Source of the DNA: Promethearchaeia archaeon
Lineage (GTDB): Archaea > Asgardarchaeota > Lokiarchaeia > Sigyniarchaeales > SOKP01
Reading direction: 5' to 3'
Assembly: GCA_046483985.1 (NCBI GenBank)
Contig: JAWOCD010000004.1
Span: 1 to 64,000 of the forward strand
Length of the DNA: 64,000 bases
Each line of letters begins with the position of its first letter. The first letter of the stretch is position 1. The notes beneath the pieces are model-generated. The model had not been told where the DNA came from. It did no database searches and worked only from the letters and a program-made list of their open reading frames with translations. This document shows positions 4,887 to 44,507 of this stretch, one piece after another. The position numbers and the translations under genes are program-made.

Positions 4887-4933
4887 TTGAACTCCCACGC
4901 CCTAAAGGACGGTGTTTTCTTTTGCCGTCTATG
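4887..4933 (-). mobile_element. 47-bp IS200/IS605-type single-hairpin miniature element, copy 1
   Basis: Minus strand TTTAT|CATAGACGGCAAAAGAAAACACCGTCCTTTAGGGCGTGGGAGTTCAA|; 2 mismatches to the copy at 44461. Confidence 0.75.
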
Positions 4934-5444
4934 ATAAATTCAATATTTTACTCTTATTCATTATTTCTTTCTGGGACATCGACCTTTTTTTTAACTCATC
5001 CAGAAGATCAACGAACCCATTATCTCAAAAACAGAGATTGAACCATTCTTAGACAAGGCAATAGCTTTCTCACCCGATCCAAAAGAAATAGAGTTTTTAA
5101 ATAATTTAATAAGAAAGAACTTCAATCCCTTTAATTCTGGCGGGATGATAACGTGGATAGTGTGAAATTTTTCATAAACGGAAAGAATCTAAATACTACT
5201 CTTTTAGAAGAGAAAACCTGGAAATTACCCGGAATTTCAATAAAATCATCGACTGATCCCTCTTCACTGACGGTCAAGATTGTCGATGCGGAAGATTTCG
5301 GCACTGATTATGCCGTGCATGGAGACCTTGATACCGTCATGCAAGTCAAATGCGATACCTCATTGATAAAACTGACTGTATCTTAGTTATTTCAAACTTT
5401 TTCTTTTTTTTAAATTAAGAACGGATTACGCTATTTTTTGTAGA

Positions 5445-5770
5445 CTATACTTTTTTTACCATGAAAACCGGTTTGTACGACTCTTTCGCCCGCCGTAGAC
5501 CTTGAACGCCTAAGTCTTGTTCCCTATTGATGTATTTTATCTCACCGCAACAATGTTTCACAAACAATTGATTTATTGCTTGATATGAACCTTGGAATTT
5601 AATGTGTGCTTTTTCAATATGTATGACTGATGTGGTCTCGTTTAATCTTTCCCCAAAGTGTATGCCGCACATTCGTCCTCAATCATAATAAGCCCGCCAT
5701 TGAAGCCAAGTTCCTCGAAATTGTCCAGAGCATGATTGATTGCTTTATTTTCTTCATGTAAGTCCTCGTT
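5445..5770 (-). pseudogene. DUF2156 / aminoacyl-transferase GNAT-like C-terminal remnant
   Basis: INREQDLGVQGLRRAKESYKP; upstream part (ALDNFEELGFNGGLI...AAYT) lies in another frame. Confidence 0.7.
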
Positions 5771-6026
5771 TATCCACCTACATCTATGACGATTTCAGAC
5801 ACCACATCCCCGGATTGACGGTTCCTTCAGAACAATTCTCGCACTAATTTGCATAATATGAAAATTATAGAAATGAATATTAAAAGATCAGTTTTTTAGG
5901 TTATAAACTTATGAACTTCAATTCCATTCTATCAGTTCAATCTGGCATCTCATTTTAATAAATCATAAGCTATAGATTCAAAAACATTGGTTGAATTTGT
6001 CATCATAAACTTAAGAGGTAATTCAA

Positions 6027-6593
6027 ATGGGAAAGAAAAAAATTCAAAATAGTGCATATTTATATCCTCTGCCAATGGTTCTTGTAGGTGCAACCGTGGA
6101 AGAAAAGCCCAATTTTATGCCAATAGCATGGGTCAGTGTGGCTGAATATAAACCGCCGATGATCTCAATTTCTGCAGCTCAGAATCATTATACAAATAAG
6201 GGAATCAGAACACATCAAACCTTTAGTATAAACATTCCTTCGGTTAAGATAGTGGAGAAAATGGATTATTGCGGGATGCAATCTGGAGAGAAAATAGATA
6301 AGTCTGGGATATTTGAGGTATTCTACGGAGACCTGGAAAATGCTCCCATGATTGAAAGTGCGCCGTTAAATATGGAATGCAAAGTAAAAAAGACAATAGA
6401 AACAGGTCATGGGCATGAAATTTTTCTCGGAGAAGTTATCAATTCATATGCCAATGAAGAAATAATCCGTGATGGCATTCCGAACGTTAAAAAACTCCAG
6501 CCACTCATGTATATTACGAAAGATAAGGAGTATTGGACACTGGGAGAAAAATTTGGGAAAGCATGGAACATTGGAAGAAACTATAAAGAATAA
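6027..6593 (+). CDS. Flavin reductase family protein (flavoredoxin-like)
   Basis: YPLPMVLVGA, PNFMPIAW, HYTNKGI, FSINIP, APMIE..PLNMEC, HEIFLGEV. Confidence 0.9.
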   Translation: MGKKKIQNSAYLYPLPMVLVGATVEEKPNFMPIAWVSVAEYKPPMISISAAQNHYTNKGIRTHQTFSINIPSVKIVEKMDYCGMQSGEKIDKSGIFEVFYGDLENAPMIESAPLNMECKVKKTIETGHGHEIFLGEVINSYANEEIIRDGIPNVKKLQPLMYITKDKEYWTLGEKFGKAWNIGRNYKE

Positions 6594-6635
6594 TTATCTA
6601 ATTTTAACTAAAATAAAAAGGTGAAATTTCGATGG

Positions 6636-6929
6636 TACATAAAGAAGATACAAGGTAAATATACATAAAGAAGATACCAAGGTAATTATTTTTATCTCCT
6701 TGATAACCACAGAGCTTCAGTAAGATTTAGGGGGATGTGGACAAGTATCTACTTGGGATATAATAAATAAGGTTTCCATTTAGAAAAAGTTCTACAAGAG
6801 ATGTGAGTTGTCCTATGGACTCCGGTAAGCTCGAAAGCCAATTGTTTTCTATACTAAAGAATTTAAGAACTTTTTAATCTATAGCCAATTGTTTTCTATA
6901 CTAAAGAATTTAAGAACTTTTTAATCTAT
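6636..6929. repeat. Cluster of duplications: ~25-bp tandem pair, 83-bp ectopic copy of 4465-4547, 47-bp tandem pair
   Basis: TACATAAAGAAGATAC(C)AAGGTAA x2 (6636, 6662); 6683-6765 = 4465-4547 with 2 mismatches; 6836-6882 = 6883-6929. Confidence 0.85.
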
Positions 6930-8594
6930 ATTAATATTAACCCTGTTGAATGAATTTAATTCTTTAACTTTTTTCCGAAGCACAATCAAGGTGACAAAAA
7001 TCCCAATAACCCCAATAAGAAGAGTTGTAATATTGAGTGCATTGATAAAAATTCGTTCCCCCGAAGTATCTATCACAATTTTCTCACGGTTATTACAAGA
7101 TCTCGGGGTTATATTGATATTCTCATAGACTACATCGGCATGCCTTATATAGATGCCATAGGCGGGTACATCACCGAACATCCAGACTTCTGGACCTGCA
7201 TCTGGAGCCTCAAGAACAGTGGAGGGAAATAAAAGCCGTTCTGCAGAGTCAAGATATTCCACAGTGAAATTATTAAGGGATATATTAGTAGCTTTAAGTA
7301 CAGAATAGTCCCAACTGTTCCATTTCCACAATTGGGCGCCGCTGATGATGCTCGGCAGCTGGCAATCATAGGAAAAAAGATTTGAGACATTTACATTATC
7401 AATCTGGCTCATGAGGTCCTTATCATCATATTTATTGCGGTTTCCGACACGAATAAATAGCGGTGCCAGCACCCCGTCCATGGAGATATTATTCACCTTA
7501 ATATCCCGTACTTCACTTCCATCTACGGATTCAATTGCTATCCCAGAAATCCCCCCAGGATAAAACTCTGTCGTAATGATCTCGCTATCAACAAAAGTTA
7601 TATTGGTAATGTCTGAATAAGTCTCCGTACCTATCTTAAAGCTGTTACATGTTGATCTTATACGGGCATTTCGGACGGTTATATTAGCCATAGGAACCGA
7701 GGAGTCTAATTTGGGATTCTTAAGCGCGATTCCATCATCCGCCGTTGAAATGAGTACATTATTTATATTCACATTACTAGTTGCAACAATGTCTATCCCG
7801 TCTACATTTCCACCTCTGATATTATTATGTAAAACCGTGTCTTTAACGGAAATTGTATTGGATAATTCAAAAGTCAAGGTCCAGCCGGGAGAATTATTAA
7901 CCAGCAAATTTCTGATACGAATATTCTGACTCTCCTTGAATAAAATAAATGGAGACGGTCTGTTTTCTTTTTTTTCTCGTTTTGCGAGGAAATGGTTTAA
8001 TTGCAGCATCCTGACATCGGAAACTCTAAGGTTAGATTTTAGTGGTTTTAATATCGGGTTATTCCAGAAGTATTCTCCTTCGCCCATTATCTTGCCGCCG
8101 TTGCCCTCAACAGTTACATTACGAATATTTTCGCCAATAATAAAATGCTTGGGGGAATAATCGGCCCTACTTCGACTCCCAATGAGATTTCCTTCTATTC
8201 TTAATGTGACATTGCTCTTTAGCTCGATGGTACCAGAGACATAATTCCCTGCTGGGATGAGCGCCACTCCATCATTAAGGCTTGCATTCTTTATTGCAGC
8301 GTTGATGGCTTCGGTATTCTTTTGAATGATATCTTCATTTATCTCATCTTTATCGTAATATGCATCTATTGCGCCATAATCTGTAATATTGAAAATTGAT
8401 CCTGACTCAAAATCTCCGTAAGGATTATCTGTTAGGTACCTTGTGGTATTTATCTCCTCGAAATCGCTCTCAAACAAAGGAATAGGTTCCTTTTCATAGA
8501 ATTTTATGAATCTATCATTTAACAGATACGTGAATGGCACTGTAATAATAATAAGTATAAAAAATATGAGACAATATTGAAAAGTCCTTTTCAT
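6921..8594 (-). CDS. Glycoside hydrolase family 28 (polygalacturonase-like), TM at both ends
   Basis: NVDGID, ADDGIALK, KIGTE motifs; beta-helix Asn/Ile periodicity. Confidence 0.85.
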   Translation of the reverse strand: MKRTFQYCLIFFILIIITVPFTYLLNDRFIKFYEKEPIPLFESDFEEINTTRYLTDNPYGDFESGSIFNITDYGAIDAYYDKDEINEDIIQKNTEAINAAIKNASLNDGVALIPAGNYVSGTIELKSNVTLRIEGNLIGSRSRADYSPKHFIIGENIRNVTVEGNGGKIMGEGEYFWNNPILKPLKSNLRVSDVRMLQLNHFLAKREKKENRPSPFILFKESQNIRIRNLLVNNSPGWTLTFELSNTISVKDTVLHNNIRGGNVDGIDIVATSNVNINNVLISTADDGIALKNPKLDSSVPMANITVRNARIRSTCNSFKIGTETYSDITNITFVDSEIITTEFYPGGISGIAIESVDGSEVRDIKVNNISMDGVLAPLFIRVGNRNKYDDKDLMSQIDNVNVSNLFSYDCQLPSIISGAQLWKWNSWDYSVLKATNISLNNFTVEYLDSAERLLFPSTVLEAPDAGPEVWMFGDVPAYGIYIRHADVVYENINITPRSCNNREKIVIDTSGERIFINALNITTLLIGVIGIFVTLIVLRKKVKELNSFNRVNINID

Positions 8595-8684
8595 TATTTT
8601 GCTTGACCCATCCTTTAAGTATTATATAAGTTCTTTTAGAATCCTCTGTTACTTTTTAGTTCAGCTTGAGTTATGTATCTTGAG

Positions 8685-11600
8685 TTATGTATAGCAAGTT
8701 CTATTTATAATGATTTTTTTCATCTCATCCGAGAGTTCGTTGAAGTATGCGCAATATCCCGCAATACGTACCAATAGGTTCGGGTATTTTTCGGGATTTT
8801 CATAGGCATCCTCTAATATTTGACGGTTTACGATGTTAGGCTGCAGTTGCATCCCCCCGTTTGTAAGAAATGTCTTAAAGATCGTTGCCAGATTTTCTGT
8901 GCCCTTGTTGTCTTGAAATAATGCGGAATCAACTGTGAGCGTAACAGTTGTCCCGTTCTCAGCATGTTCAGTGAAGTCTACATCAGAAATAGAATTTAGT
9001 GTCGATAACAGATCAGACTGCTCCATTCCGTAGTGAGGAGTAATGCTATTGGCTAAAGGAACACCTTTTAATCTTCCTGAAGGTAAGGCGGGAGTCCTTT
9101 TACCATACGCTGTATTCACAGCTAAGGCATAATAGCCAGCGGAATATCTGCCATTACGGGGACAATTCGGCACCGAATCCAAGGCATTATTGTACATCTC
9201 CATTACTTTATTCATCCACGCTGTAGCCTCTTTTGATGAATCTTCGCCAAATTTCGGTACAGAAAGTAACGCAGATCTGACTTTCTCATATTTTCCTTGG
9301 AAATTGTGCTCTATTGCCTTAATTATCTCATCCATAGTAAAGAGATGTTTCTTGTATACTACCTCATTAATAGCGTGGAACGAATCCGCGACATCAGTGA
9401 CCCCGACTGCCTGAATACCGCAGCTGTTGAACTCAGCACCGCCTTCATAAACGTCCTTTCCGGTTTCGAGACAGTTCTCAAAAAGCGTAGAGGCAAGGGG
9501 TGTCGGAAAATATTTTCGAAGTTTACTTTCAATTTTTTGGTGCTCGGTGAGAATGGATTTTGTCACCTCGTTTAACCTCTCTTGATATCGCTCAAGCAGT
9601 TCTTCCATGCTGGAAGGTGGATTATACTTATAAAGTCCTTTTTTGTAATTATGCCGTTTAATAAGTTTATTACAAATCCTTCTTATAAACCTTGATATTC
9701 GATTTTTTCCTTTAAAGAGAAATTTCATGAAATTAGTGACTAATATTAAAAAATGTTCACTGAGGCCAGGGTTCCACAAATCATGCTCTTGACCCTCGAG
9801 TGCTTGTAAAAGCGGAAATGCTAAATTTACATTTGCGCAATCAGTATTGCCAAAATGGTCATTTGAGGCAGTGGGTTCAACACAACCTACAATAGAATAA
9901 TCTCTTGCGTTTTCCAGTGAGGTGGGATAATGTTTTTGGAGAGCTTCAATATAATTTTCATCGCTGAACAATTGCGGTAAGGGACATCCGCTGATAAAGA
10001 TATCCGCAATCTTATTCAGATATTCAGGCGGGCTATTCTCATGGATACGCGCTCCCATATCGATCGAATACGATTGTAATTTACATGCATCCAAAAACAT
10101 ATAAGTTAGTTCGTTAGTGGCGTCATTCCCTTCTTTATCTACGCCTCCAAATGTCAAAGCTTGATCTGAAGAGCTGGTTTCCACTGTCTTATACGCTGAA
10201 ACAAACGAGTTATCGCCGTCTGTGGTAAGAACGAGCTCATCCATTTTAAGTACAAATAGCGCAATAAGTTCTTTTGCCTCTTCGTAGGTGATTCTTCCCT
10301 CTTCTTTATCCTTTTTGTAATAGGGATACAGCATCTGATCGAGTCGTCCAAAGGATATAGCGTTTTCATATGATTCCATACAAAGTGCTATATGGATGAA
10401 AGTAATACATTGAAGGGCTTCATGAAACGTTCGGGCGGGATATTTGGGGACATGGTCGCAAATCTTGGCCATTTTTTCCAGTTCCTTACGACGTTCTGGA
10501 TCCCTTTCTTTTTTACTTAATTTCGATAAGAGGTTCGCATATCTCTGACCAAACGTCTCTAATCCCTTGAGCGCAACTATAGTGGCCTCATAGAAATTTT
10601 GCTTTTTCTTATCCTCAGAATGTTCTTGCTGCAGTGATTTAATTTTCTCTCTGAGGCCAGACGTACCTAATTTAAGAATGGGATCGTAGTTGGCAACGAA
10701 ATGTGCAATTGCCAAAAGATTATTATTTAACCCGTACTTCATATCAGATGTTCGGGAAATTGCAGCAATGATACCTGAAATTTTAGGATAAACTTTTGCC
10801 ATAAGACTACGAAAAGCCCACCAAGGAAATATCTTTAAATAACAATATAACTTATCTTTCAAGGAAATTTGATACGGCATCGGAGTTTGACGATCGATGG
10901 CATAAAGAAATGAAAACCCAAGCGTACCGTGATATTCCTCCCAGAGTTGGCTTCCCTTTCTTTCCGGAGTAAAATTACCCACAAGTAATTCTTGCGGATA
11001 TATATCGATCTTTTTATTTTCTAACACATGGGAAAGGCGTTCAGCTCTATGAATATAAGGAGACTTTTCAAAACCGTGTTCCTTATAATACTCTGTTTTT
11101 AGTCTTCCGCTCTCAATGCAAAGATGCCTTGGTGCATCTCTAACGTCTTTTTGAATTCGCTTGACACGCGGTGTAAAGGAGGGCTCATATCTTGAATCCA
11201 TATTCAGATCAACGCTGTCGGCTTGAATCCCATAATCCCGGAATAATTTTGCTCCCTTTTCTAATGAAGCTTGGCTTTGTTCGGGCGAAATGCCTAACAA
11301 GGCAATATCCAAACCAAGACGTTCGGCTTTATCCTCGTACATATTATGGTATTTCATTAATTCAATTGAATCATAATCGATAGAGTGAAGAAACTCCGCG
11401 GTGGCTTGTATGTTTTCTTCGATGTCAGTATAACCCGGCACCATCACCATACGGAATTTAACATTGGCCCCTAACTCAAGTAATTTACTGATATTCTCGT
11501 GAATTACGGTGTAATCTTGTTTTGTATATTTAATATGAAGGCCTTCATTGCCGACCACCTTGAGATCAACGAGAAAAAGATCGATATAGGGGGCGGCTTT

Positions 11601-11972: not shown

Positions 11973-12179
11973 ATTTAAATTTCCTTTAAATACATACTTT
12001 AATTACTATTTTTAATATTAACTAATATATGAAGTAAGTAATATTTATCTCTTTTCCTCTTACTAAATATGGAGACTATATCCATTACCCTAACTCAGAC
12101 ATATGGCTCAGAGGCTCGGATTTAGAGGCTTTGTTGAGTTACATTTTAATAGATATCATGCAAACGCTTATAATACCGT

Positions 12180-12456
12180 GGGGATCGATTCATGCACCAC
12201 ATGCAGCCGTAGATGTCGAAGTCTTCCAAGAACGGGATAATCCTATTCCCGCTATCGGTCATCACCTCCCAGATCTGGGCTTCTTTCATCTCGAAGGATA
12301 ATACCGTCCCAAGAGATCATCCTCGCCAAATACATGCGTAAAGAACAGGTCACCGGTCACATAATCTGGCAAGATCAAAAAGTGCGCAATCTCAAAGTAT
12401 TGAAAGATGTCCAGAAAGATTTGTTGCAGATCGGACAGCAGCGCGTTCTTAGGAAG
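12180..12456 (-). pseudogene. GC-richer frameshifted coding remnant of unknown family
   Basis: LPKNALLSDLQQIFLDIFQY...; then a second frame FEMKEAQIWEVMTDSGNRIIPFLEDFDIYG. Confidence 0.3.
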
Positions 12457-15884: not shown

Positions 15885-16420
15885 ATAAATAAATCTGTTG
15901 GGGAAATCCTTATATATGTTTAAATTAACATTGCCTTATACGCCTTATATTCTCCGGTATAGTCTCGTGATGATCTCCAATCATTACTAAGGGAAGTTTA
16001 ATTACCCAAAAAAATCCCCGTCGTAGATTTTATCAAAAAGTCTTGCTTGTCATAATCAATAAATTTCTTAAGGGTTTGGAGAGAGAAGCGCCGTTTTCTT
16101 TATTTTTTAAAAACACCATATTTCGGTTGGGTGAGAAAGTTAGTTAGGTAAATATCATTATGGATTATTAAAGCTATTCTTTAAATTCTATAAATGGAAA
16201 TTTAAATTACAATTTTTTTCTTTCTTTCTATTCTCCGTCAATGCCACTATTTTTCTTTTTAAAGACACGTCAATTTTGGGATGTAAACATATCCATATCA
16301 TACCTATAAAAAAAAGAACAAATTAGGTAAAACCGCAAATGGATCTTGAATCGAGTGCAGGTCAGAAAGGATAAAAGGGGGCCCAAGAGGAGAACGCTGC
16401 CGTTCTTAGGTTAAAATTAG

Positions 16421-16471
16421 GGCAAAATCCATCCTCGTCCTAAAGGACGGGGTATTCTTTTGCCTTTAATG
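16421..16471 (-). mobile_element. IS200/IS605-type hairpin element, copy 2 (left-end-like, extended stem)
   Basis: Minus strand TTTAT|CATTAAAGGCAAAAGAATACCCCGTCCTTTAGGACGAGGATGGATTTTGCC. Confidence 0.7.
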
Positions 16472-27205: not shown

Positions 27206-27303
27206 GTAAGTCTGATAAAAATAATTATTTCTCTAATATAAATTACGGGAAAAAGTTTCTAAATTGATCTTGAATAGAAAACCAACAATAAAAATATTTG
27301 CGT

Positions 27304-27351
27304 ACAAAATTCAACCCCGATCTAAAAGACGGGGACCTCTTTTGCTATAAG
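27304..27351 (-). mobile_element. Degenerate IS200/IS605-type hairpin element, copy 3
   Basis: Minus strand TTTAA|CTTATAGCAAAAGAGGTCCCCGTCTTTTAGATCGGGGTTGAATTTTGT. Confidence 0.55.
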
Positions 27352-29121: not shown

Positions 29122-30015
29122 ATGATGGCTAAGAATTCTGAAAAATCTCTTCCTTTAAGAACCTTTCCGCTTATTTCTTGTTCTCGACGAACAGATATCC
29201 CTGCATTTTTAATGGAGTGGGTAAAAGAAAAAATAGAGCAAGGATTTGTGGATGTAACAAATCCTTTTAATCGAAACCAGATTACTCGCGTCTCTTTAAA
29301 ACCAGAAGATATAAAATGCTGGTGCTGGTGGAGTAAGAATTATGGACCTTGGATCTGGACATATAAAGCAAATCCTAAACTGTTCAATCAATATAAAGGA
29401 CATTATTTTCAATTTACGATTAATAGCCCTTCAAAGCTTGAGCGAAATCTTAAAATCTCTTTACGGGAACGGTTTTCTCAACTCGAGTGGTTAATAGATC
29501 AGTTTGGAACTACGGCGGTAAATTACCGATTTGATCCAGTTATTCTATACAAAAAGAAAGGAGAGAAAAAAATAAGGAGCAATCTCAGCCATTTTGAGCA
29601 AATTATTAAAAAAGTGAGTTCCTTAGGTCTTGAAGAGATGGTATTTTCCTTTGCAACGCTCTACAATAAGGTAAAAAACCGAATGCCGAAAAGAGGGTTT
29701 AGTCCTATTAAGATCTCCTTAGCGAAAAAGAAAGAAATTTTAGAAAAACTCAAAAGCATATGCGAAAAATATGGCATTCAAATGCGTGCCTGCTGCCAGC
29801 CAAAATTATTAAAAATTGAAGGTATTCAGCAAGCACATTGTATTGACGCACACAAAATCGAAGCAATAATAGGTGAATCTGTTCCGAAAAGAAAAGATAC
29901 TGGACAAAGAGATGCGTGCGGTTGCCATAAATCCAAGGATATCGGAGGGTATACGGGAATCTTCAGATGTAAGCACAATTGCGATTACTGTTATGCAAAT
30001 CCCGCGAGAAAATAA
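29122..30015 (+). CDS. DUF1848 family protein (radical SAM-like)
   Basis: ISCSRRTDIPAF, WSKN, FQFTI, RFDP, C-terminal CGC..SKDIG...CKHNCDYCYAN. Confidence 0.9.
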   Translation: MMAKNSEKSLPLRTFPLISCSRRTDIPAFLMEWVKEKIEQGFVDVTNPFNRNQITRVSLKPEDIKCWCWWSKNYGPWIWTYKANPKLFNQYKGHYFQFTINSPSKLERNLKISLRERFSQLEWLIDQFGTTAVNYRFDPVILYKKKGEKKIRSNLSHFEQIIKKVSSLGLEEMVFSFATLYNKVKNRMPKRGFSPIKISLAKKKEILEKLKSICEKYGIQMRACCQPKLLKIEGIQQAHCIDAHKIEAIIGESVPKRKDTGQRDACGCHKSKDIGGYTGIFRCKHNCDYCYANPARK

Positions 30016-30020: not shown

Positions 30021-31694
30021 TTAATCCGCTTTTGGTAAAGTGAGAATAAATTTACTTCCTCGGGTATAATCATCTTCAACTTTATTTTCAACCCGGATTA
30101 ATCCGTTGTAACTATCGACTATTTTTTTAACCAAGGATAAACCTACCCCATGCTGGGAATCCCCTTTTCCGATTTTTGATTTGAATAAACCATCCTTCTT
30201 CTCATCTGGAATCCCAACTCCGTTATCTATAAATTCCATTTGAACCATTTGCTTATCATCTTGGCTTATAATAGACACGTTTATTGTAATTTCTATATGT
30301 GAAGAATCATTATGAATGATGGCGTTCATTATCAGATTTTCAAAAATATCTCGAAGCAGCTCATTCGCTTTCACTTGCAGATCATTAAAATCATAATTGA
30401 GGAAAAAAATGATTTTATGTGATTTATAACTTTTTACTATAAAGTCCATAGTGGTTTTTAACTGATGATAGAGATCGATATTTTGTAGTTGAAAATCTTT
30501 ATTAATTTGAGATAATTTAGAAACATTTTTTATTATTCGAGCTCCTCTTACAACTTGCTCTTTAAGAATATGATTTATTTCTTTAAACTTATCAGATTTA
30601 GGAGGATCTTTCAGATAAATCGAATTGAGATCCACAGAAGTGCGAATGTTTTGTAAAATATTATTCATATCATGGGTAAGGAGATTTTGGTATAAATTCA
30701 CCCTCTGGTAAGCATCTTTGTATTTTTTCTCTGATTGTCTTAAATTTTTGGTACGTGCTCTTACCTTTGATTCCAATTTTTCATTCAATTCTTTAAGTTT
30801 TTCTTTTGATCTTTGGAGTTCAAAGAGTGCTTTCTTTTTTTTGGTGATATCTTGAACGAGACTTATAACATATTTGGGTTTATCATTAATATCACGGACC
30901 AAGGTTGCTGTGAGATCCCCCCAGATAATTTTACCGCTTTTATGAATGTATCTTTTTTCGATGTGGTAAAATTCTCGCTTTCCACATACCAATTCACGGA
31001 ATAAATTTAAGTCGATATCTTTATCCTCTGGATGCGTGAATTCTTGGAAATGGGTATCGTTTAACTCCTCCTCGGAATAACCAAGAAAATTATGGAGATA
31101 TGTATTCATCTCAAGGGGGCGCCCTTTCATATCAACTCGGGCAACTCCAATAGAACTACTGGAAACTATAGCGCTGTAGCGTGATTCCCGATCCTTTAAT
31201 TTTTCTCTAATTCTTTTTATCTTTCTAATATCATTAATAGTGCAGATCATATTTGTAAACTGATTCTGCTCTTTTAACGGAATTAACCATCCTGATCGGA
31301 ATCTTTGGGTTTTTCCAAGAGTTAGAACATTAATACCATCATAAAATATGGGTTTAAGATGTCTTTTTGCTTTATTATAATATTTAATAAACTCTTTAAC
31401 TGACCCTTCCGGAAAATCCGTATAAAGATTCCTTCCAACTATTTTTTCACTTGGGACATCAGCAATTCTCTCTAAACTTTTATTACAGTAAACAATAATA
31501 TCATTCTCATTTGTAATCCAAACACCATTCCGAACAGCATCAAGTATTTTTTGATAAAATTCTTTTTGGTTCTGAAGCTTTTTTTCTAACTGATCTTTAT
31601 CTGCAGTTAATCGCTCTATTTTTTCCTTAGATTTTTGTTTGAATGATTTAAACTCATCAAGTAATCTATCATATTTATCTTTCAGATCCATCAA
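30021..31694 (-). CDS. Cytoplasmic multi-PAS sensor histidine kinase
   Basis: Coiled coil, two PAS (THPED), LTHDMNN, FENLIMNA, DNGVGI, GVGL. Confidence 0.9.
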   Translation of the reverse strand: MMDLKDKYDRLLDEFKSFKQKSKEKIERLTADKDQLEKKLQNQKEFYQKILDAVRNGVWITNENDIIVYCNKSLERIADVPSEKIVGRNLYTDFPEGSVKEFIKYYNKAKRHLKPIFYDGINVLTLGKTQRFRSGWLIPLKEQNQFTNMICTINDIRKIKRIREKLKDRESRYSAIVSSSSIGVARVDMKGRPLEMNTYLHNFLGYSEEELNDTHFQEFTHPEDKDIDLNLFRELVCGKREFYHIEKRYIHKSGKIIWGDLTATLVRDINDKPKYVISLVQDITKKKKALFELQRSKEKLKELNEKLESKVRARTKNLRQSEKKYKDAYQRVNLYQNLLTHDMNNILQNIRTSVDLNSIYLKDPPKSDKFKEINHILKEQVVRGARIIKNVSKLSQINKDFQLQNIDLYHQLKTTMDFIVKSYKSHKIIFFLNYDFNDLQVKANELLRDIFENLIMNAIIHNDSSHIEITINVSIISQDDKQMVQMEFIDNGVGIPDEKKDGLFKSKIGKGDSQHGVGLSLVKKIVDSYNGLIRVENKVEDDYTRGSKFILTLPKAD

Positions 31695-31760
31695 TAAATT
31701 AATTATACTATTACTATATATATATATATATATTTTTTTCTTGTATCAAGCCCCCATATT

Positions 31761-31842
31761 CAAGATATTGGAGGAAACACGAGTGTTTTCTAAATGCAGA
31801 CATAATTGCGGTTATTGTTATGTAAATCCCCCAAGAAATTAA
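31761..31842 (+). pseudogene. Diverged duplicate of the last ~27 codons of the DUF1848 gene
   Basis: QDIGGNTSVF/KCRHNCGYCYVNPPRN* versus KDIGGYTGIFRCKHNCDYCYANPARK* (29935-30015), with a 1-nt insertion. Confidence 0.8.
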
Positions 31843-31884
31843 ATTCCTCTCCCTAAAGGACGGGGTATTCTTTTGCCTTTAATG
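31839..31884 (-). mobile_element. 46-bp IS200/IS605-type single-hairpin element, copy 4
   Basis: Minus strand TTTAT|CATTAAAGGCAAAAGAATACCCCGTCCTTTAGGGAGAGGAATTTAA|. Confidence 0.75.
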
Positions 31885-32281: not shown

Positions 32282-32290
32282 TTAAGTTCC

Positions 32291-33487
32291 CTACGATTTT
32301 CGCATTGTTTTGAATTTTCCCGTTTTCATAACATCACACGGGAGAAAATAGTCTTTTCCTGTTATTTTAGCTATATCCCTTAACCTTTGTGACCATTGTT
32401 CATAATTTCGTTTACCGGGATTAAAGGGGCCTGGAATTCGCATCCCAGCCATCATTGCTTTATCTATTATTCTATATCCGCTCACAATCTCATCGTGTAA
32501 TAATCGACATCCCTCATTGAGGTGAATTGCTAAAAGATCATCTGGCTGAGCCAATCCCGCCCCTTTCTGAGCCTTCTCCGACTCATCAATTTTCTCCCCG
32601 TCCCATTTATAAAACCCTTCTCCAGTTTTTTTGCCCAATTTGCCTTCATTTACTAACGATGTAAGAACTTTTCCAGGACTTATATCTGGATGTAAATTTT
32701 CCTCTAAATATTTAATCGAATTATAGACCGTTTCTAAGCCTAGATAATCCGCTATCTCGAATGGCGCTCTTCCTTTGATTGCTGTTACATCTTTGTCTAA
32801 GTGTGCGGCTTTATATCCCAGTTCGTAGGCTTTATCCAACATTGCCATAAGATATGCCATTCCCACGATATTTAATCGATTCACAATAAATCCTGGACTT
32901 GCTTTTTGAAGTCGGGCAATAAATCGTTTTCCAGAGAGGCAAGGCAGGTTCATTCCCAGTTTTGCGGTGATTTCCATAGTCTCTTTGGAAGTGTGAGCCC
33001 CCCTTATAACTTCAATAAGCGATAATATTGGGATCGGTGTAAAAAAATGCATACCTATCACATTCTCCGGGCAAGATGATGCGGAAGCAATTTCGGTTAT
33101 ATTCATGGTAGAGGTATTGGTAGCTAATATTGTCTCTGGAGGGGTTAATGCACCGATCGTTGAAAAAACATCCTTTTTTATCTTCATCACTTCCGGTACT
33201 GCCTCAATCACAAAGTTTGCTTTGGAAACCGCTGATTGAATGTCTGTTGTCAAAAAAAGATGATTTAAGAGGTCCGCTGGGGTTTGGTCTTTCTCCAGTT
33301 TTCCCTTTGAGTATAATTTCATAAGGGCTTTTTTAATAAAGGCCTGGGCACTATCAAGAGGTGGTTGCTTAATATCGTGCAATATTACTTTAGGAAATCT
33401 ACCCAAAAGAAGTACTTGTGCAATTTCTCGTCCCATTGTGCCGGAACCTATAACTGCTACAGTGGTAATCCAATCCATTTCGTTCAT
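32291..33487 (-). CDS. 3-hydroxyacyl-CoA dehydrogenase
   Basis: GSGTMG, IEAVPE...K, ATNTS, GMHFF, PGFIVNR, GKKTGEGFY. Confidence 0.93.
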   Translation of the reverse strand: MNEMDWITTVAVIGSGTMGREIAQVLLLGRFPKVILHDIKQPPLDSAQAFIKKALMKLYSKGKLEKDQTPADLLNHLFLTTDIQSAVSKANFVIEAVPEVMKIKKDVFSTIGALTPPETILATNTSTMNITEIASASSCPENVIGMHFFTPIPILSLIEVIRGAHTSKETMEITAKLGMNLPCLSGKRFIARLQKASPGFIVNRLNIVGMAYLMAMLDKAYELGYKAAHLDKDVTAIKGRAPFEIADYLGLETVYNSIKYLEENLHPDISPGKVLTSLVNEGKLGKKTGEGFYKWDGEKIDESEKAQKGAGLAQPDDLLAIHLNEGCRLLHDEIVSGYRIIDKAMMAGMRIPGPFNPGKRNYEQWSQRLRDIAKITGKDYFLPCDVMKTGKFKTMRKS

Positions 33488-33532
33488 AATGATAATTTTC
33501 TTTTGCTTTTTTGAAAAAAAGTTGAAAAAAAG

Positions 33533-37546: not shown

Positions 37547-37745
37547 ATTCGGTCTCTCTTGTTTTTCAATCTCAATTATCGACTAGTAAGGTTAGGAATG
37601 GATAAAATTTTAAAATTTGGTATCAAATATTTAATTTCTGAAAGAAGTTACCTAAACAATTTTATAGGACATTAAAAGATATATATATTATTGTATTTAA
37701 TTAATTGAGAAATTTTATATTTAAACAAATTTGGGATATACTAAC

Positions 37746-38468
37746 ATGTTAGGTCAGATTCCAGATACAATGCCAAATGAACATTATCGTCCCATAAATA
37801 TTCATGGGATTATAAATCTATATGCATATATTTTCTTTGCTGTCCTTCTTATCGGATTCGGTATCTATTTTTTCCTCCAAACAAAAAAACAAGAGTTAAA
37901 AAGCGTAAAAAGACTTAAGGTTGGATTGGGGCTATTTGGAATTACCTACGGAATAACCAGAATTCTATTTGTTCTTATGTTTAATATCAATCCCGATGTT
38001 TATTATGATATGTTCGCTTCTTTAGCTTATGCTGTGGGGATGGTCGGATTTACAGCGATGATATGGGCGTTAGAGCAAGTGAAGTATAAAAAACGCTATT
38101 TCTTCTTGGTATCTATAAGTACTACAATTATAGTGATTATATCCGCGGCGATGGTAATTATTTTGACTCTTTCGGGGATCACAGCAACAGAACTACGAAT
38201 AAATATTCTATATGTAATTTATATCGGGTCTGGAATTGCAATGATATTAATAATCTTTCTGTATATTGGTCTAATTCGATTATCCACTGGTCTTATTAAG
38301 AAAAAGGCAATCTATTCATTTCTTGGGTTGATTATAATGACACTGGGAATCTTGCTGGATAGTCAATTTTTCTTAGGTTTAGAGTTCATACCCCTCTGGA
38401 TAAAAATGGATCTCGTACCCATAATTACTATTATCGGATATTTAATATTTGCAATCAATCAAATATAA
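37746..38468 (+). CDS. 7-TM membrane protein
   Basis: Seven hydrophobic helices; ATG at 37746 preferred. Confidence 0.7.
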   Translation: MLGQIPDTMPNEHYRPINIHGIINLYAYIFFAVLLIGFGIYFFLQTKKQELKSVKRLKVGLGLFGITYGITRILFVLMFNINPDVYYDMFASLAYAVGMVGFTAMIWALEQVKYKKRYFFLVSISTTIIVIISAAMVIILTLSGITATELRINILYVIYIGSGIAMILIIFLYIGLIRLSTGLIKKKAIYSFLGLIIMTLGILLDSQFFLGLEFIPLWIKMDLVPIITIIGYLIFAINQI

Positions 38469-38552
38469 TCCAACGAGTCAAAATTTGAATAAAAAATGTT
38501 AAAAGTAAATATTAAATATATTGACTTTAAAGAGGAGATGTGTTGAATAAAT

Positions 38553-39224
38553 ATGGGACATTTAAACTACGATCTAGGATTAAAAACCACATTTTGGATC
38601 ATTGTTATTTGTTACTTGACAATTTTAGCAACCCTCTTTGTGAGAAAATCATTTAAGTCAGAGGAGATATCATCTCAGAAGAACTTGAACAGAGCAATTG
38701 CGATTTTCTTCTATATGTATGTCATTGCACGGATTTTATTTATTTTTTCTGATTTTGAAAGAGATCCAAATGGGCAAACGGCCCTTTATTTCCAATTTGT
38801 AGCAGCCTCATATGTCTTTAACGTTGTGGGTTTCTTAGCATTAATAATTGTTGGAGAAAAATACCTATTCAAACCCGGAAAGTTTGTAATGAGTTATATT
38901 TTAGGAGGAGCCCTTGTCTTCAATATTGTCCTACTGATTTTCTTTCCACAGTTGTTTACTATCGCCCGATACATCAATTATGTAATATTTTATACTGAGG
39001 TGGGGATATTGATATTATTATTTCTCTTCTTAATTAGAAAGACTCCAGGAAAATTAAGAAAGAATTCTATATTTTCACTTATTGGTCTGATAGTAATGTC
39101 TGTTGCTTCTATCCTAGAATCAGATGCGTTGGTTTCGGAAGGGATCGTACAACCCTATTATTCACCATTTTTATTTGCTATAGGGATAACTATATTCGCC
39201 TATGGTCAAATGAAAGGGATATAG
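38553..39224 (+). CDS. 7-TM membrane protein, paralog-like to the upstream gene
   Basis: Seven helices; shared RILF, E at the end of TM3, G.(L/I)(R/K)K..I.S..GLI.M. Confidence 0.7.
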   Translation: MGHLNYDLGLKTTFWIIVICYLTILATLFVRKSFKSEEISSQKNLNRAIAIFFYMYVIARILFIFSDFERDPNGQTALYFQFVAASYVFNVVGFLALIIVGEKYLFKPGKFVMSYILGGALVFNIVLLIFFPQLFTIARYINYVIFYTEVGILILLFLFLIRKTPGKLRKNSIFSLIGLIVMSVASILESDALVSEGIVQPYYSPFLFAIGITIFAYGQMKGI

Positions 39225-39225
39225 G

Positions 39226-40071
39226 CTACAATTCCCTATTTTTTTTTGCGATTTTTTTCAATTCATTCTTCAAAAATGATTCCAGTTTTTTATTTGAGGC
39301 CACCAATGGTATATGTGCATTGATCGTTAACTTTATATCTAAATCAACCCCAAGGCGAGAATATAAATTCCCCCCCGCTTCCCTTATAATCAAATACCCT
39401 GCTGCGATATCCATTATCCTGCTGCTTTCTCGAAAATCAATCAATCCATCAAGGCTTCCTTTGGCAATAAGACATAAACTTAATGCACAGCTTCCCATTA
39501 TTCGGGGACGATAAATTTTTTCAATTATAGAACTGTAATCGATTAAATTTTGCTTGATTTCATTGCTCTCAAAGTCAATTTCAAACATAATTGGGTCCTC
39601 AACTCCTTTCTCTGACACCGTAATCTTCTCATCATTGAGAAACGAGCCTTTTCCTTTTTCGCTCCAGTAAATATCTTTGGTATTAAGATCAATTATCACC
39701 GCCTTAAGAATCTCCTCTAACGAATCACCCTCCGCATATGCAATAGACACGCAGCAAAATGGAATACCTCGTACTGCATTATTTGATCCATCAATAGGGT
39801 CTACAATCAATTTCGCTTGTTTCTTACTTGCTTCTACTTGGTCTCCAATAAAAACTTCGCCAATTTCCTCGCTGATTAGCAAAACATTTACATCGATTTC
39901 TTCCAAAGCGTTTTTAATTACGTCTTCTGCGTGCCTATCTATGATCATGGAAATATCGCCTCCTGCTCCTTCTTCCAATTGAATTGCTGCTTTTTTGGTT
40001 CCTATCAAATCATGAACTTCATCATACACAGAAATTGCCAATTCCTTCAGAAAATCAATCGTAACTTCCAT
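39226..40071 (-). CDS. suhB: Inositol monophosphatase / FBPase (archaeal bifunctional type)
   Basis: SEE, VDPIDGS.N, RIMGS.AL, MDIAAGYLI..EAGG. Confidence 0.88.
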   Translation of the reverse strand: MEVTIDFLKELAISVYDEVHDLIGTKKAAIQLEEGAGGDISMIIDRHAEDVIKNALEEIDVNVLLISEEIGEVFIGDQVEASKKQAKLIVDPIDGSNNAVRGIPFCCVSIAYAEGDSLEEILKAVIIDLNTKDIYWSEKGKGSFLNDEKITVSEKGVEDPIMFEIDFESNEIKQNLIDYSSIIEKIYRPRIMGSCALSLCLIAKGSLDGLIDFRESSRIMDIAAGYLIIREAGGNLYSRLGVDLDIKLTINAHIPLVASNKKLESFLKNELKKIAKKNREL

Positions 40072-40087
40072 TTGAGGTTATTCTCCT

Positions 40088-41338
40088 TTAAGTATTTTTA
40101 GTAAGTTCTCTTTCTTTATCAACTATTTCTTTTACAGTTTTTTTGTCGGTCACGACCATTTTCGTCATACTATTGGTAAAAACCAAACGCGGTCCTTTAT
40201 TTAATTCCTTCTGCACATAGATTTTATCGATTTTTTTTCCGGTCAACCAATCTGAAATTAGTATCCCCTTTCTCTTTTCTCTATCGATAAATTTATTTTT
40301 TAAAAAGTCTTGATGAGTTAAATTACCCTCTTCTAGCGTGAATATGGCAAAATACGGGGCTTCCCCGTACTTATCAAAGATTTTGGAATCCAAATCTTCA
40401 TTTTCTTCTAAGGGCACTGCAATTTTGGTCAAAGATTTCTCCTCAGATTCCGTAATTATAATAGTTTTAAAGATTTTGGGAAAATTTTCCTTAATCTCTT
40501 CGTTAAGACGTTTTTTAAGAGTGTCCATATCGGAGCTTGACAATCGGTGGCTTACAACAACTTCAAGTTCCAGAAAGATATATTTTCCGTATGCGCGTAG
40601 ATCTAAACGCTCAATTCGTTTTACTCTGGAAAATTCTTCAATTAACTCGTGCAATTCCGTTCTCTTTTCAAAGTCAATTACAGCATCCAAAAGTGTTTTA
40701 GTGGAATTGAGAAATATCCCATAGCCCCCTCTTATAATGAATAAAGAAATCAGAATTCCAAATATGGAATCCAAGATGTTCAAATTGATAAGAGCTCCAA
40801 GAAATCCTATGAGCACAGAAAGCGAAATAAAAATGTCAAACCACTTTTCTGAAGCTTCCGATTTGATAATGGGGGATTTAATACGGTTTGCAACAATTCT
40901 CATATATATTGCTACAATTAAAGAGATTATTAAGGATATAATCAAAAAGATAAATACCGGAAATGAAAGGAGCAGGGGTCTTTCGGTTCCGTTAATAAAT
41001 TGAATGATATCGACAATAGATTGTCTGATAATATTATATGCAGTGTAAAAAATCACAATAGAAATGATTAAACTTATGATATTTTCGATTTTATAATATC
41101 CATAAGGAAATTCCTCGCTCGGTTTTTTATTTGCTAAAATAATGCCGACCAGTGCGGCAAATACTAACACCAAATCAGTTAGGTTATCGAACGCATCAGC
41201 TTGTAAGGCCCGGCTATTGGTTAAGTAAGAAAATATAATCTTAGAAATAAACAGCCCAAAATTAACAGTAAAAAGAACAAAATTAATAAAAATGGGCTTT
41301 TCAAAGAAAGGTTTCTCATTCGTTTTTTGAGAACTCAT
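40088..41338 (-). CDS. Cation diffusion facilitator with C-terminal NifB/NifX-like domain
   Basis: ALQADAF, FPYGYYKIE, ZT dimer region, KIAVP....YGEAPYF. Confidence 0.88.
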   Translation of the reverse strand: MSSQKTNEKPFFEKPIFINFVLFTVNFGLFISKIIFSYLTNSRALQADAFDNLTDLVLVFAALVGIILANKKPSEEFPYGYYKIENIISLIISIVIFYTAYNIIRQSIVDIIQFINGTERPLLLSFPVFIFLIISLIISLIVAIYMRIVANRIKSPIIKSEASEKWFDIFISLSVLIGFLGALINLNILDSIFGILISLFIIRGGYGIFLNSTKTLLDAVIDFEKRTELHELIEEFSRVKRIERLDLRAYGKYIFLELEVVVSHRLSSSDMDTLKKRLNEEIKENFPKIFKTIIITESEEKSLTKIAVPLEENEDLDSKIFDKYGEAPYFAIFTLEEGNLTHQDFLKNKFIDREKRKGILISDWLTGKKIDKIYVQKELNKGPRLVFTNSMTKMVVTDKKTVKEIVDKERELTKNT

Positions 41339-41423
41339 ATATAGAATAAAAACATAGTAATCTTTTTTAACGTGACAGTTAAAAAAATTAAAAACCAGTC
41401 ATAAAAATGGGAAACTTAGAAAT

Positions 41424-41729
41424 TTACCTAAGCTCGATTTCGACGAGAACTGACTCCGGAATTTGAATCTTCATAATAAGATGCATGCTTCTTTCATTCG
41501 CAACTACGTCAATCAACCGTTTATGAATTCTCATCTCAAATTTCTGCCAAGTATCGGTACCTTGACCAGAGGGGGCCTTCAATACGGGGACTCTTAAACG
41601 ATTTGTAGGGAGAGGGATTGGACCATGTTTTTTAATGCCCTGCGACTTGCAAACATCTTCTATTTGTTCACAAACTTTTTTTAAGGCAGGTAATTCAGTT
41701 GATGATAATCGAATACGAGCTTTTTGCAC
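41424..41729 (-). CDS. rpsJ: 30S ribosomal protein S10 (uS10)
   Basis: KARIRL, GPIPLPT, P.GQG..TW..FEMRIHKRLID. Confidence 0.97.
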   Translation of the reverse strand: MQKARIRLSSTELPALKKVCEQIEDVCKSQGIKKHGPIPLPTNRLRVPVLKAPSGQGTDTWQKFEMRIHKRLIDVVANERSMHLIMKIQIPESVLVEIELR

Positions 41730-42064
41730 GGAATTTGTTCACCAATTTATAATATTTAAAGCTTACGGTTTATTTTCCATCTATTCAAAAACTTATGTAA
41801 GGACAATAATTATTATTATTAAATAAATTTTTTGTATGGCTTAATAAATTTCCCATACTTTATGGATATATTTTCATTGAGAAATTCTCCATTTCCTTTT
41901 TCTCCAAATTTATTTTTAGTTCCACTTCTACCGTTGTTGCTAATTAATATGGCTTTTCCAGCTTTTTTAATCCTTGAAGAAAGCGTTCCCTTAAAGCGTA
42001 TAAACTCAAGATTGAAGTTAAAGGTCCTTTAGAAATCCAATAAATAGATATCAAAAGTTAATTA

Positions 42065-43201
42065 TTAGTGTAATAAAAATTCATTCCCTAAATGGACATG
42101 TTCAAGGTATGTTTCGGCAATCTCCAAGCATTTGTATGCTTGTTTTTTAGATGTATAAGGGAGGTCCTTCATCATGTAATCTGGATGAAAGACTAAAAGA
42201 GAATAAGGGATTTCGGGATTGATATTGGCAATAAATTTTGCAATCCGCTCAATTTCTTTAGAATTTGTGTAACCCGGTACCAATAAGGTACAACCACTTA
42301 ATTCTGGTAAGGTATTTCTTGTTCCAAAATAATTTTCTCCCAAATATTTGAAATTTTTTAAGGTCCTTTTATTACTTGTGCCACATAAAGCGATATTCAG
42401 CTGTTCATGATAAGTTTTCAAATCGAATTTAATGTTTCCGCCAGTTTTAAGGGCAATCTTCATGCATTGCTCCATGAGATCTTGTCTCCCGCTCCCGTTC
42501 CATTCCCAGCAGACTCTAAACTTTCTATTTTCCTCTCTTGCCTCATCGATTTTTTCCAATACTAATTCAGCTAAATGGACTGTAAAGGGAAGTTGTGGTT
42601 CTGGATCGCCTCCAAAAAAACACATGCAAGTTATATTCTTGTTTTTAAAAATGCGGTCGGCAACGGCTTCTGCCTCCATTAAATCGTCTTTAGTGAAATG
42701 TTTATGGGAGGAGTTTTGGCAAAAGAGACAATCAAAAGAACATCCATAAAGGAAGGCCGCATAACTATATGTTCCAGTTTCATCTCCGTCATATATGGAA
42801 TATTCCGGGTATCCTCTAGATGTGCCCGCGGGACAGAACCATGAATTGCAGCAGTTGGTCGGATTAGAATCCAAGTACCCATGCATATATGCTTTGTCCT
42901 TCGTGGGGTAAGATAAATTACCTTGTTCATTTTTTTGATAATCTCGAAGACCACAGTAACTTTTATCATCCTCTGAAACCTTACATTTATTAATACAGAG
43001 ATTACAACTAAATCTAATATTTTTTTCCTTAGATTTTGGAGGAATAACGGGTAAGTTTTCGCTAAGTCGAACTTTGGAATGCACATTAAGAAGGTGTTCC
43101 TTGACTTTATTTTTATCTGCATTTATTATACATTCTCGACAAATCTGCAATATTTTGGAAACTAAACTGCTTTCCTTACCACAGAACTTACAAGTTGCCA
43201 T
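42065..43201 (-). CDS. Radical SAM protein (PFL-activase-like / AmmeMemoRadiSam-related)
   Basis: GCSFDCLFCQN, FFGGDP, PTNCC, extra CxxC motifs. Confidence 0.85.
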   Translation of the reverse strand: MATCKFCGKESSLVSKILQICRECIINADKNKVKEHLLNVHSKVRLSENLPVIPPKSKEKNIRFSCNLCINKCKVSEDDKSYCGLRDYQKNEQGNLSYPTKDKAYMHGYLDSNPTNCCNSWFCPAGTSRGYPEYSIYDGDETGTYSYAAFLYGCSFDCLFCQNSSHKHFTKDDLMEAEAVADRIFKNKNITCMCFFGGDPEPQLPFTVHLAELVLEKIDEAREENRKFRVCWEWNGSGRQDLMEQCMKIALKTGGNIKFDLKTYHEQLNIALCGTSNKRTLKNFKYLGENYFGTRNTLPELSGCTLLVPGYTNSKEIERIAKFIANINPEIPYSLLVFHPDYMMKDLPYTSKKQAYKCLEIAETYLEHVHLGNEFLLH

Positions 43202-43219
43202 CTTTAGATAAAATATATA

Positions 43220-43897
43220 TCAATCAATTAAATCTATCTTTTTGTGAGTTGACTTTTTTAAAAGCAAGAATGTTTTTCCTGATTTTTGTTCCTCTTTTTC
43301 CTTAATGGAGAAACCATCAAATCCTGCTTTTATAAAGGATTTCTTAAAAATCTCCAACATTTTTTCACTTTCCGGATAAAATTCAATGATAAACCGTCCA
43401 TTTCTTTTCAAAATTTCATTTATATACTGAGCAGTTGTATTGACAATAGAAAATATCTCTCTTTCAGATTTTGAATCATGAGTGATAAAATTATACGCTG
43501 AAATTGAAATTATATGGTCAATCGAACGAGAGCGAATCGGTAATTTCGTAATATCAGCTAATATCAACTCTAAGTCTTTTGATCTTGGCAACGCTTCCTT
43601 CTTTCGTTTACGAGCCAGAGAGATCATATCGGTTAAAATGTCAATTCCAATTACGTGAAAATCATAATTAATTAAAAATTCAGAAGAAAAACCGCTTCCA
43701 CAACCTAAATCAAGGATAAGCGTCTCTGAGGGCAGCGATACTTCTTCCTTGCCTAATTTTGAATCGTAAAGATATTCAATTACCCTTTCTGTGGTCTTTT
43801 TTTGATTTCTTTCCATCCATTTCTCATTATCGTATTCTTTTGCCCGTTCTCCGAGATAGCTATCCGGAAATTTGGGAGTTTTATCCTTTCTTGGCAT
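43220..43897 (-). CDS. Class I SAM methyltransferase, Bud23/WBSCR22-like
   Basis: ILDLGCGSGFS, IISISA, EFYP, AGFDG, KTFLLL. Confidence 0.75.
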   Translation of the reverse strand: MPRKDKTPKFPDSYLGERAKEYDNEKWMERNQKKTTERVIEYLYDSKLGKEEVSLPSETLILDLGCGSGFSSEFLINYDFHVIGIDILTDMISLARKRKKEALPRSKDLELILADITKLPIRSRSIDHIISISAYNFITHDSKSEREIFSIVNTTAQYINEILKRNGRFIIEFYPESEKMLEIFKKSFIKAGFDGFSIKEKEEQKSGKTFLLLKKSTHKKIDLID

Positions 43898-44056
43898 TAT
43901 GACGTATTAGAACAATTTATTCATTTTATTTTATATTATAAATTTAAAAATAAATATTAAAAGAGAAGAGAAGAAATATATATTTAGTTAACCTAATAAC
44001 TTATTTATGGAACTTTTAATTTAATATAAATAAGCATTTACTAATTATATTAATGG

Positions 44057-44464
44057 ATGAGTAAATTGTCAGTGAAAAATTCAGAAAAAAATACCGTATT
44101 AGTAGTTGACGATGAAGTCGACATCCTAAATCTAACTCAAAAATTTCTTAAATTAGCCGATTTTAATACCATTACTACCAGTAATGGGAAGGAAGCAATG
44201 AAAATCCTTGAGAAAAGATATGATGAGATTGCCCTTGTATTATTAGATATTATGATGCCAGGGTTATCTGGGTACCAATGTTTAGAGGAAATTAAAGAAC
44301 ATGAGAAGTATGAGGATATCCCCATAATCCTTTTTACCGTAAAAAGTTTTAACGAAGATATACAAAAGGGGAAAAAGCTCGGAGCCGATGGATACCTTAC
44401 TAAACCTTTCTCAGGTAAAGAGTTAGTAAAATATATTGAGGAAAAATTAGAGATTAAACCTTGA
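44057..44464 (+). CDS. Single-domain response regulator
   Basis: VLVVDDE, LLDIMMP..SG, GADGYLTKPF. Confidence 0.93.
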   Translation: MSKLSVKNSEKNTVLVVDDEVDILNLTQKFLKLADFNTITTSNGKEAMKILEKRYDEIALVLLDIMMPGLSGYQCLEEIKEHEKYEDIPIILFTVKSFNEDIQKGKKLGADGYLTKPFSGKELVKYIEEKLEIKP

Positions 44465-44507
44465 ACTACCACGCCCTAAAGGGCGGTGTTTTCTTTTGCC
44501 GTCTATG
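44461..44507 (-). mobile_element. 47-bp IS200/IS605-type single-hairpin element, copy 5; supplies the response-regulator stop codon
   Basis: Minus strand TTTAT|CATAGACGGCAAAAGAAAACACCGCCCTTTAGGGCGTGGTAGTTCAA|. Confidence 0.8.

Follow-up and report, generated by a model that had tools for sequence, protein, structure and literature searches.

Single-hairpin stubs in an Asgard-type archaeal genome as likely scars of IS608-like transposons

Can a stretch of DNA with a single hairpin be a transposon in its own right, or is it what remains of one? The question is raised by five short, related palindromes, numbered here copies 1 to 5, in positions 1 to 64,000 of contig JAWOCD010000004.1 (assembly GCA_046483985.1) of a Promethearchaeia archaeon, a stretch hereafter called the window. 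The original prediction, made from the letters of the window alone, described them as one family of ~47-bp elements of the IS200/IS605 type of insertion sequence (IS), in which one hairpin serves both ends and insertion at a stop codon rebuilds the stop. Comparison with the rest of the genome leads to a more modest picture. All five palindromes derive from IS608-like IS200/IS605 transposons, but only two or three of them are single-hairpin elements: copies 1 (4887-4933) and 5 (44461-44507) are true 47-bp stubs, and copy 4 probably is a stub as well. The stubs are likely to be decay products, that is, scars left when repeat-mediated deletion removed the core of IS608-like elements, with copies 2 and 3 being left ends truncated in other ways.

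The draft genome to which the window belongs has 4.06 Mb in 128 contigs, with 35% G+C. It codes for ribosomal protein S28e and four actin homologs (best score 440 bits), which marks it as that of an Asgard-type archaeon. All five palindromes lie where they had been placed, on one strand, and are homologous. A pattern describing their 25-nt core has four matches in the window and none in 100 shuffles, which rules out chance palindromes.

Ends and transposase genes of an IS608-like family

A profile built from the copies and run over the whole genome with nhmmer gave ~160 matches at E < 1e-3, and motif scans of the genome found ~250 separate IS-type ends. One hairpin type, with a CC-TTTA-GG loop region, is common to left and right ends and occurs at ~130 sites. 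The subterminal palindromes are imperfect, the left stems carrying a T.G mismatch, and there are no terminal inverted repeats. A left end consists of a target (TTTAC, TTTAT or TTTAA), a 19-nt lead, the hairpin and the left-end interior. A right end consists of interior, GAAT, the hairpin and an 8-9-nt tail that closes in TCAA; both GAAT and TCAA are kept in all full right ends, of which three families (RE1, RE2 and RE3) were distinguished.

This layout closely resembles that of IS608 (ISHp608) from Helicobacter pylori. In IS608 the left cut is made 3' of TTAC, 19 nt 5' of the foot of the left hairpin, and the right cut is made at TCAA, 10 nt 3' of the foot of the right hairpin, while the four bases 5' of each foot serve as guide, with AAAG for the left cut and GAAT for the right (PMC3201880). 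The archaeal family shares with IS608 the 19-nt left spacing, the imperfect hairpin, the order of tnpA and tnpB and the lack of a target duplication, and one of its left-end families also has the TTAC target together with the AAAG guide, as its right ends have the GAAT guide and the TCAA tip. Two differences stand out: additional left-end families use TTAT and TTAA, with guides changed to match, and the stubs have one hairpin and no GAAT. The matching of guide to target is regular. TTAC goes with AAAG, TTAT with AAAA or AATA, and TTAA with AAGT, so that target and guide change together at their fourth bases (C:G, T:A or A:T). The proposed IS200/IS605 ancestry is borne out by these IS608-like ends and targets, by the TCAA-type right tip and by the absence of a target duplication.

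An autonomous element of the family has the order TTTAA, left end, tnpA (134 aa, of the Y1 HUH class), tnpB (409 aa), right end. Neither tnpA nor tnpB is found in the window, as the original prediction had said of TnpA, and matches to the cognate genes are present elsewhere in the genome, 15 to tnpA (PF01797, best E 1.8e-36) and 26 to tnpB, all outside the window. Every Y1 match sits inside an IS copy and adjoins tnpB. The three fully assembled tnpA copies (G000:C66:70288-70647, C67:11082-11621 and C97:1242-1610) are frameshifted, each in a different way, and six further copies are broken off at contig ends near codon 40-60. The nearest relatives of TnpA in named genomes are archaeal, at ~50-55% identity.

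Apparent covariation in the stems might also be read as the mark of an RNA motif or riboswitch. This reading was rejected, since the covariation is explained by the existence of different IS end families; an Rfam search of the window gave no match.

At one locus outside the window (G000:C41:76479-77911) a gene for a 394-aa transporter of the major facilitator superfamily (Pfam MFS_1, E 3e-56) takes the place of tnpA or tnpB. Its flanks are a type-A left end and an RE3 right end that face the proper way at a distance of 1433 bp. Either the element carries cargo or the two ends are remnants unrelated to each other.

Origin of the 47-bp stubs

Seven units of exactly 47 bp, termed mini-B, occur in the genome; their mean identity is 95.7% and three of them are identical. 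They lie at C45:4887 and C45:44461 (copies 1 and 5), C45:82027, C11:21680, C74:22720, C99:47635 and C107:60560. In each, a type-B left lead of 19 nt is followed by the hairpin (20 nt) and a right tail of 8 nt with TCAA at its end, and all seven are preceded by TTTAT. In the stub tail TCAA is kept, 8 nt from the stem, and GAAT is replaced by GAAA or AAAA. Related units elsewhere in the genome are variants of 42 and 43 bp, in which the hairpin is damaged, and a single unit of 48 bp that has another right tail. The 47-bp boundaries predicted for copies 1 and 5 are corroborated by a paralogous site to copy 1 that is missing precisely those 47 bp (TTGAAC..CTATG on the plus strand). At this empty site, between positions 66448 and 66449 of G000:C87, the flanks are ~90% identical to those of copy 1, and because the gap is exactly 47 bp with no repeated bases, the boundaries are confirmed and a target duplication is absent.

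How such a unit could arise is suggested by the structure of the longer elements. A full element consists of a TTTAN target, a 19-nt lead, a left hairpin, tnpA and/or tnpB, GAAT, a right hairpin and an 8-9-nt tail ending in TCAA, and is of the peel-and-paste kind, moved as a single strand by a Y1 transposase. Its left and right hairpins are direct repeats, and recombination or slippage between them would delete the core and leave behind the left lead, a single hairpin and the right tail. Copies 2 and 3, in the same scheme, would be left ends severed through other deletions. The original prediction had itself named recombination scars between left and right ends as the alternative to its mobile element, and it is this alternative that is favoured by the identity of the stub hairpin with a right-end hairpin, by a diagnostic sequence variant, by an allelic deletion and by tandem arrays.

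The hairpin and tail of the stub, 28 nt in all, are identical to those of the RE3 family of right ends, in which ..GAATC stands in front of the hairpin. RE3-type right ends adjoin tnpB remnants, and one of them follows a type-A left end at a distance of 1433 bp. The type-B left stem has 17 nt in common with the RE3 stem, with one mismatched position (T versus C). This position is also the site of the sole polymorphism shared among the seven stubs, three of which have T and four C, all other variants being private to one copy. Crossovers on either side of the mismatch would yield both forms, which accounts for the split at the diagnostic position. A TnpB remnant on contig C33 was considered as a possible parent of the stubs and was rejected; its hairpin is similar and its tail differs.

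Deletion and expansion between hairpins can be seen elsewhere in this genome. The end of contig C45 (81730-82116) and the start of contig C11 (31-342) are ~99% identical alleles, set apart by a 103-bp indel that runs from hairpin to hairpin and joins the hairpin of a mini-B stub to the tail of a right end: C45 carries a mini-B stub together with a spacer and a left-end element of 86 bp, and C11 a single 48-bp stub with an RE1 tail. The overlap of the two contigs points to strain heterogeneity within the assembly. Tandem arrays with a 54-bp period lie at the ends of contigs C127 (1-200) and C125 (1-100), and the period equals the distance from a right hairpin to the next left hairpin. The array unit is made up of left lead, hairpin, right tail and GGGGTTAC, and the arrays are flanked by a right end and a TTAC-type left end. 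They look like the outcome of unequal recombination between two hairpins 54 bp apart.

Stubs make up a larger share of a lineage the longer the repeat that its two stems have in common. In lineage B, where 17 nt are shared, there are ten stubs and no long elements; the TTAC left ends with RE1 share 16 nt and form the tandem arrays; the TTAA left ends with RE1 share ~9 nt and are represented by three stubs versus five longer elements; and type A with RE2 shares 8 nt and has no stubs versus ten longer elements. These data suggest that the length of the repeat common to both end hairpins is a simple predictor of decay, and the near-complete collapse of lineage B would follow from the 17 nt, with one mismatch, shared by its stems. 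The genome would then hold a decay series in an Asgard-type archaeon, from an IS of ~1.8 kb through 100-450-bp palindrome-associated transposable elements (PATEs) and 47-bp stubs to a 23-bp joint that lacks a hairpin. Two such 23-bp joints, the smallest decay products seen, lie on contig C85 around 35011 (plus strand) and on contig C98 (minus strand); in them a TTAA-type left lead is fused straight to ..CTTCAA.

Stubs of this kind have a precedent. In Haloquadratum walsbyi, terminal-only forms of 52 bp are derived from a PATE of 390 bp and an IS of 1500 bp through palindrome repeats of 22 bp and 19 bp (PMC3119063). The stubs described here share with the 52-bp HqIRS46 and ISHwa23 forms of Dyall-Smith et al. 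2011 (PMC3119063) a size of ~50 bp, fused tips and one near-terminal palindrome; like terminal-only PATEs, they consist of a left tip, one palindrome and a right tip, 47 bp altogether, and the parental stems form a 17-nt direct repeat. Further likenesses to the Haloquadratum PATEs are the lack of inverted terminal repeats and of target duplications, an origin, probable for the stubs here, by deletion between direct-repeat palindromes, and an archaeal host in which most transposase genes are broken. The differences are that the host is Asgard-type and so belongs to another phylum than the haloarchaeon, that the shared repeat is 17 nt with one mismatch here and an exact 19-22 nt there, and that no pair of full and deleted alleles was found at a mini-B site here. 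The finding is therefore real and fairly ordinary, stubs of this kind having been published for salt-loving archaea in 2011. For annotation, it means that the stubs should be masked as transposon scars and not entered as terminators or new RNA genes.

Several observations count against an origin of the stubs by core deletion. No filled and empty pair of sister strains was obtained for the mini-B sites: in a pattern search of 60 genomes from the same family the source genome was the only match, two metagenome scans, with the mini-B sequence and the left-B lead as queries, gave 0 matches each, and an exact-protein look-up of the response regulator that adjoins copy 5 found no sister strain. No long parent running from a type-B left end to a right end survives in this genome, an absence that is equally well explained by the high deletion rate that a 17-nt repeat predicts. 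The observed allelic deletion joins two neighbouring elements and not the two ends of one element, and a simple transition at a T.G wobble position might account for the T/C variant. A burst of stub transposition would give the same picture of identical 47-bp length, 96% mean identity and three identical stubs. Lastly, six strain-specific insertions of the 52-bp stub have been described in Haloquadratum (PMC3119063), and these suggest that such stubs can move.

Much of this evidence belongs equally to the rival explanation in which the 47-bp unit is a non-autonomous transposon that multiplied as such, with TnpA supplied in trans and one hairpin guiding the cuts after both TTTAT and TCAA. We regard this as possible but doubtful. 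Apart from the uniform copies, the missing parent and the Haloquadratum insertions, it would account for TTTAT ahead of all seven copies, for the existence of a precise empty site and for the restriction of the pattern to one lineage, the source genome being its only match among the 60 genomes of the family. The A-rich tract at the foot of the hairpin can moreover be read in two registers one base apart, as AAAA, which pairs at 3/3 positions with TTAT, or as GAAA, which pairs at 2/3 with TCAA. The IS608 transpososome, however, requires both hairpins and both pairs of guide and cleavage site (PMC3201880), while the stub has no GAAT and its hybrid stem is weakened. The claim that one hairpin serves both ends accordingly fares poorly: the right guide is missing, and in the register that fits TTAT completely TCAA pairs at only 1/3 positions, rising to 2/3 at best when the guide is taken as GAAA. 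Three other facts speak against a mobile stub, namely the T/C variant at the diagnostic position, which points to at least two independent deletions, the frameshift in all three fully assembled tnpA copies, and the hairpin-mediated deletion and expansion directly visible in this genome. If stubs nevertheless proved mobile, the two-hairpin transpososome model would be challenged.

A bolder version holds that the stub is the smallest known living unit of the IS200/IS605 type, mobilised in trans through a two-register guide, and that its target and tip are shaped for harmless integration at TAA stops, a safe harbour in a gene-dense genome. This is unlikely, somewhat more so than mobility by itself. 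Scars formed in situ are moderately favoured over transposed copies, and we infer that each stub arose where it now lies, although stubs formed in this way may have been mobilised in trans at a later time.

It is highly improbable that the hairpins were recruited by the host, for example as transcription terminators or as regulatory sites resembling repetitive extragenic palindromic (REP) elements and kept by selection: on the plus strand a hairpin followed by a T-rich tract does stand directly after the response-regulator stop codon, and gene ends are enriched for right ends, but the stub hairpins are degraded and match no Rfam family, orthologous sites in related genera are without elements, copies occur in all kinds of contexts, pseudogene remnants included, and conservation of the flanks tracks IS ends and not a functional motif.

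The likeness to REP elements and their associated transposase RAYT (TnpA-REP) lies in short dispersed single hairpins that are related to Y1/HUH enzymes and often stand just downstream of genes. REP elements differ in having a conserved 5' GTAG and a dedicated single-copy RAYT gene between REPs, whereas the stubs have no GTAG, their flanks are IS left leads and right tails, and the Y1 matches all lie in IS adjoining tnpB. The stubs accordingly fall outside the REP/RAYT group.

Gene ends and rebuilt stop codons

The claim that insertion at a stop codon is silent can be followed most closely at copy 5, which adjoins a response-regulator gene of 135 aa (44057-44464, plus strand; Pfam Response_reg, E 2.3e-27). 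The right tip of the element provides the stop codon TGA of this gene (44462-44464), and the sequence CCT TGA spans the tip. The predicted arithmetic is correct: the gene ends in ..CCT TGA at present and would end in ..CCA TAA once the element is removed. The response-regulator orthologs of eight related genera close near the same residue without the element; they are ~70% identical in amino-acid sequence and thus too diverged for a base-by-base reconstruction of the empty site.

Copy 4 (31839-31884, minus strand) gives a less certain case. It stands at the end of a C-terminal remnant of a DUF1848 paralog, placed at 31760-31842 within an 82-codon open frame (31594-31842, plus strand) that ends in ..CRHNCGYCYVNPPRN and its stop at the right tip of copy 4. 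The frame now reads AGA AAT TAA and, after removal of 31839-31884, would read AGA AAA TAA, as does the end of the intact DUF1848 gene (29122-30015), which closes in ..CKHNCDYCYANPARK and a stop. While this part of the prediction stands, the agreement does not confirm the boundaries of copy 4 independently, as had been claimed; with TTAAATT also present immediately behind the stop codon of the intact paralog, the right boundary of copy 4 is ambiguous. The DUF1848 remnant is wedged between copy 4 and a gene for a PAS-domain histidine kinase (30021-31694, minus strand).

The basis of the fit is simple. Read on the opposite strand, each of the three targets is NTAAA and the right tip is TTGAA, so that insertion turns xxN TAA into xxT TGA wherever the NTAAA of the target includes a TAA stop. 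Over the whole genome, 13 of 149 right ends provide the TGA of an open reading frame of at least 80 codons, as against 5 and 3 in the other two frames. Compared with an expectation based on the NTAAA sites available at stop codons or in intergenic DNA, TAA stops are hit 2.8 times more often (9.7% versus 3.5%; p = 0.0009). The geometry of silent insertion is thus real and modestly enriched, but with 13 of 149 right ends it is a minority outcome. Within the window, stop rebuilding concerns a live gene at copy 5 and a pseudogene remnant at copy 4. No more than selection against insertions in genes and promoters is needed to explain the enrichment, and the stop-codon fit is a by-product, arising from the end sequences under the filter of selection, and not a dedicated function. 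That the target and tip of an IS608-type element regenerate TGA at TAA stops is one small point that is possibly new; stop-codon geometry is not discussed in the account of the Haloquadratum PATEs (PMC3119063).

The copies in the window and their orientation

The five copies do not form a uniform 47-bp family, a description that was rejected because copies 2 and 3 are longer and lack a right-end tail; the window instead holds a mixture of stubs and longer solo left ends, all on the minus strand. The predicted flanks were found on that strand, with TTTAT before four copies and TTTAA before copy 3, and so were the predicted ends, GTTCAA closing copies 1 and 5 and TTTAA closing copy 4.

Copy 1 is intergenic, and its hybrid hairpin has a left arm of the T type; its TTTAT target lies at 4934-4938 on the minus strand and reads ATAAA on the plus strand. 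Some 150 bp around it (4840-5030) have a ~90% identical paralog near the end of contig C87 (66430-66560). Copy 5, whose left arm is of the C type, has two exact counterparts elsewhere in the genome. In copy 4, a type-A lead, a hairpin and a 7-nt tail (..AATTTAA) probably make up a 46-bp stub whose right tip has mutated; the tail has no second instance in the genome.

Copy 2 is a type-A solo left end of 75 bp (16397-16471), with lead, intact hairpin and ~35 nt of left-end interior, after which it breaks off; this length was assigned because homology to other type-A left ends reaches to ~16397. Two open reading frames downstream of copy 2 were considered as tnpA and tnpB and rejected, as their products are a response regulator and a histidine kinase. 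Copy 3 is a solo left end of the TTTAA-targeting type (type D), without a right-end tail. It is taken to be at least 80 bp long (27272-27351) because homology to the TTTAA-type left end reaches to ~27272, and it aligns over 85 nt with a site on G000:C37 around 48020.

Folding as single-stranded DNA gave weak z-scores for the stub hairpins (-0.29 for copy 1, -0.85 for copy 5 and +1.33 for copy 4) and better ones for the solo left ends, at -1.99 for copy 2, where an outer stem encloses the hairpin, and -2.68 for copy 3.

The common orientation of the five copies, which had been linked to replication, is part of a wider tendency of ends within a contig to point the same way. The overdispersion statistic for orientation within contigs is 73.7 against a null mean of 28.0, and none of 5000 simulations reached 73.7. 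Gene strand composition does not account for the shared orientation (rho = 0.24, p = 0.22), and local GC skew, used as a proxy for the direction of replication, gave no signal (137 versus 150). The shared orientation fits strand-specific integration at replication forks.

One further stretch of the window, at 33495-33520, is T-rich and resembles the 19-nt lead of a type-C left end, without a hairpin. Its place is immediately in front of the start codon of a 3-hydroxyacyl-CoA dehydrogenase gene (32291-33487, minus strand). The stretch is a candidate for a sixth relic, or else AT-rich DNA has produced the match by chance.

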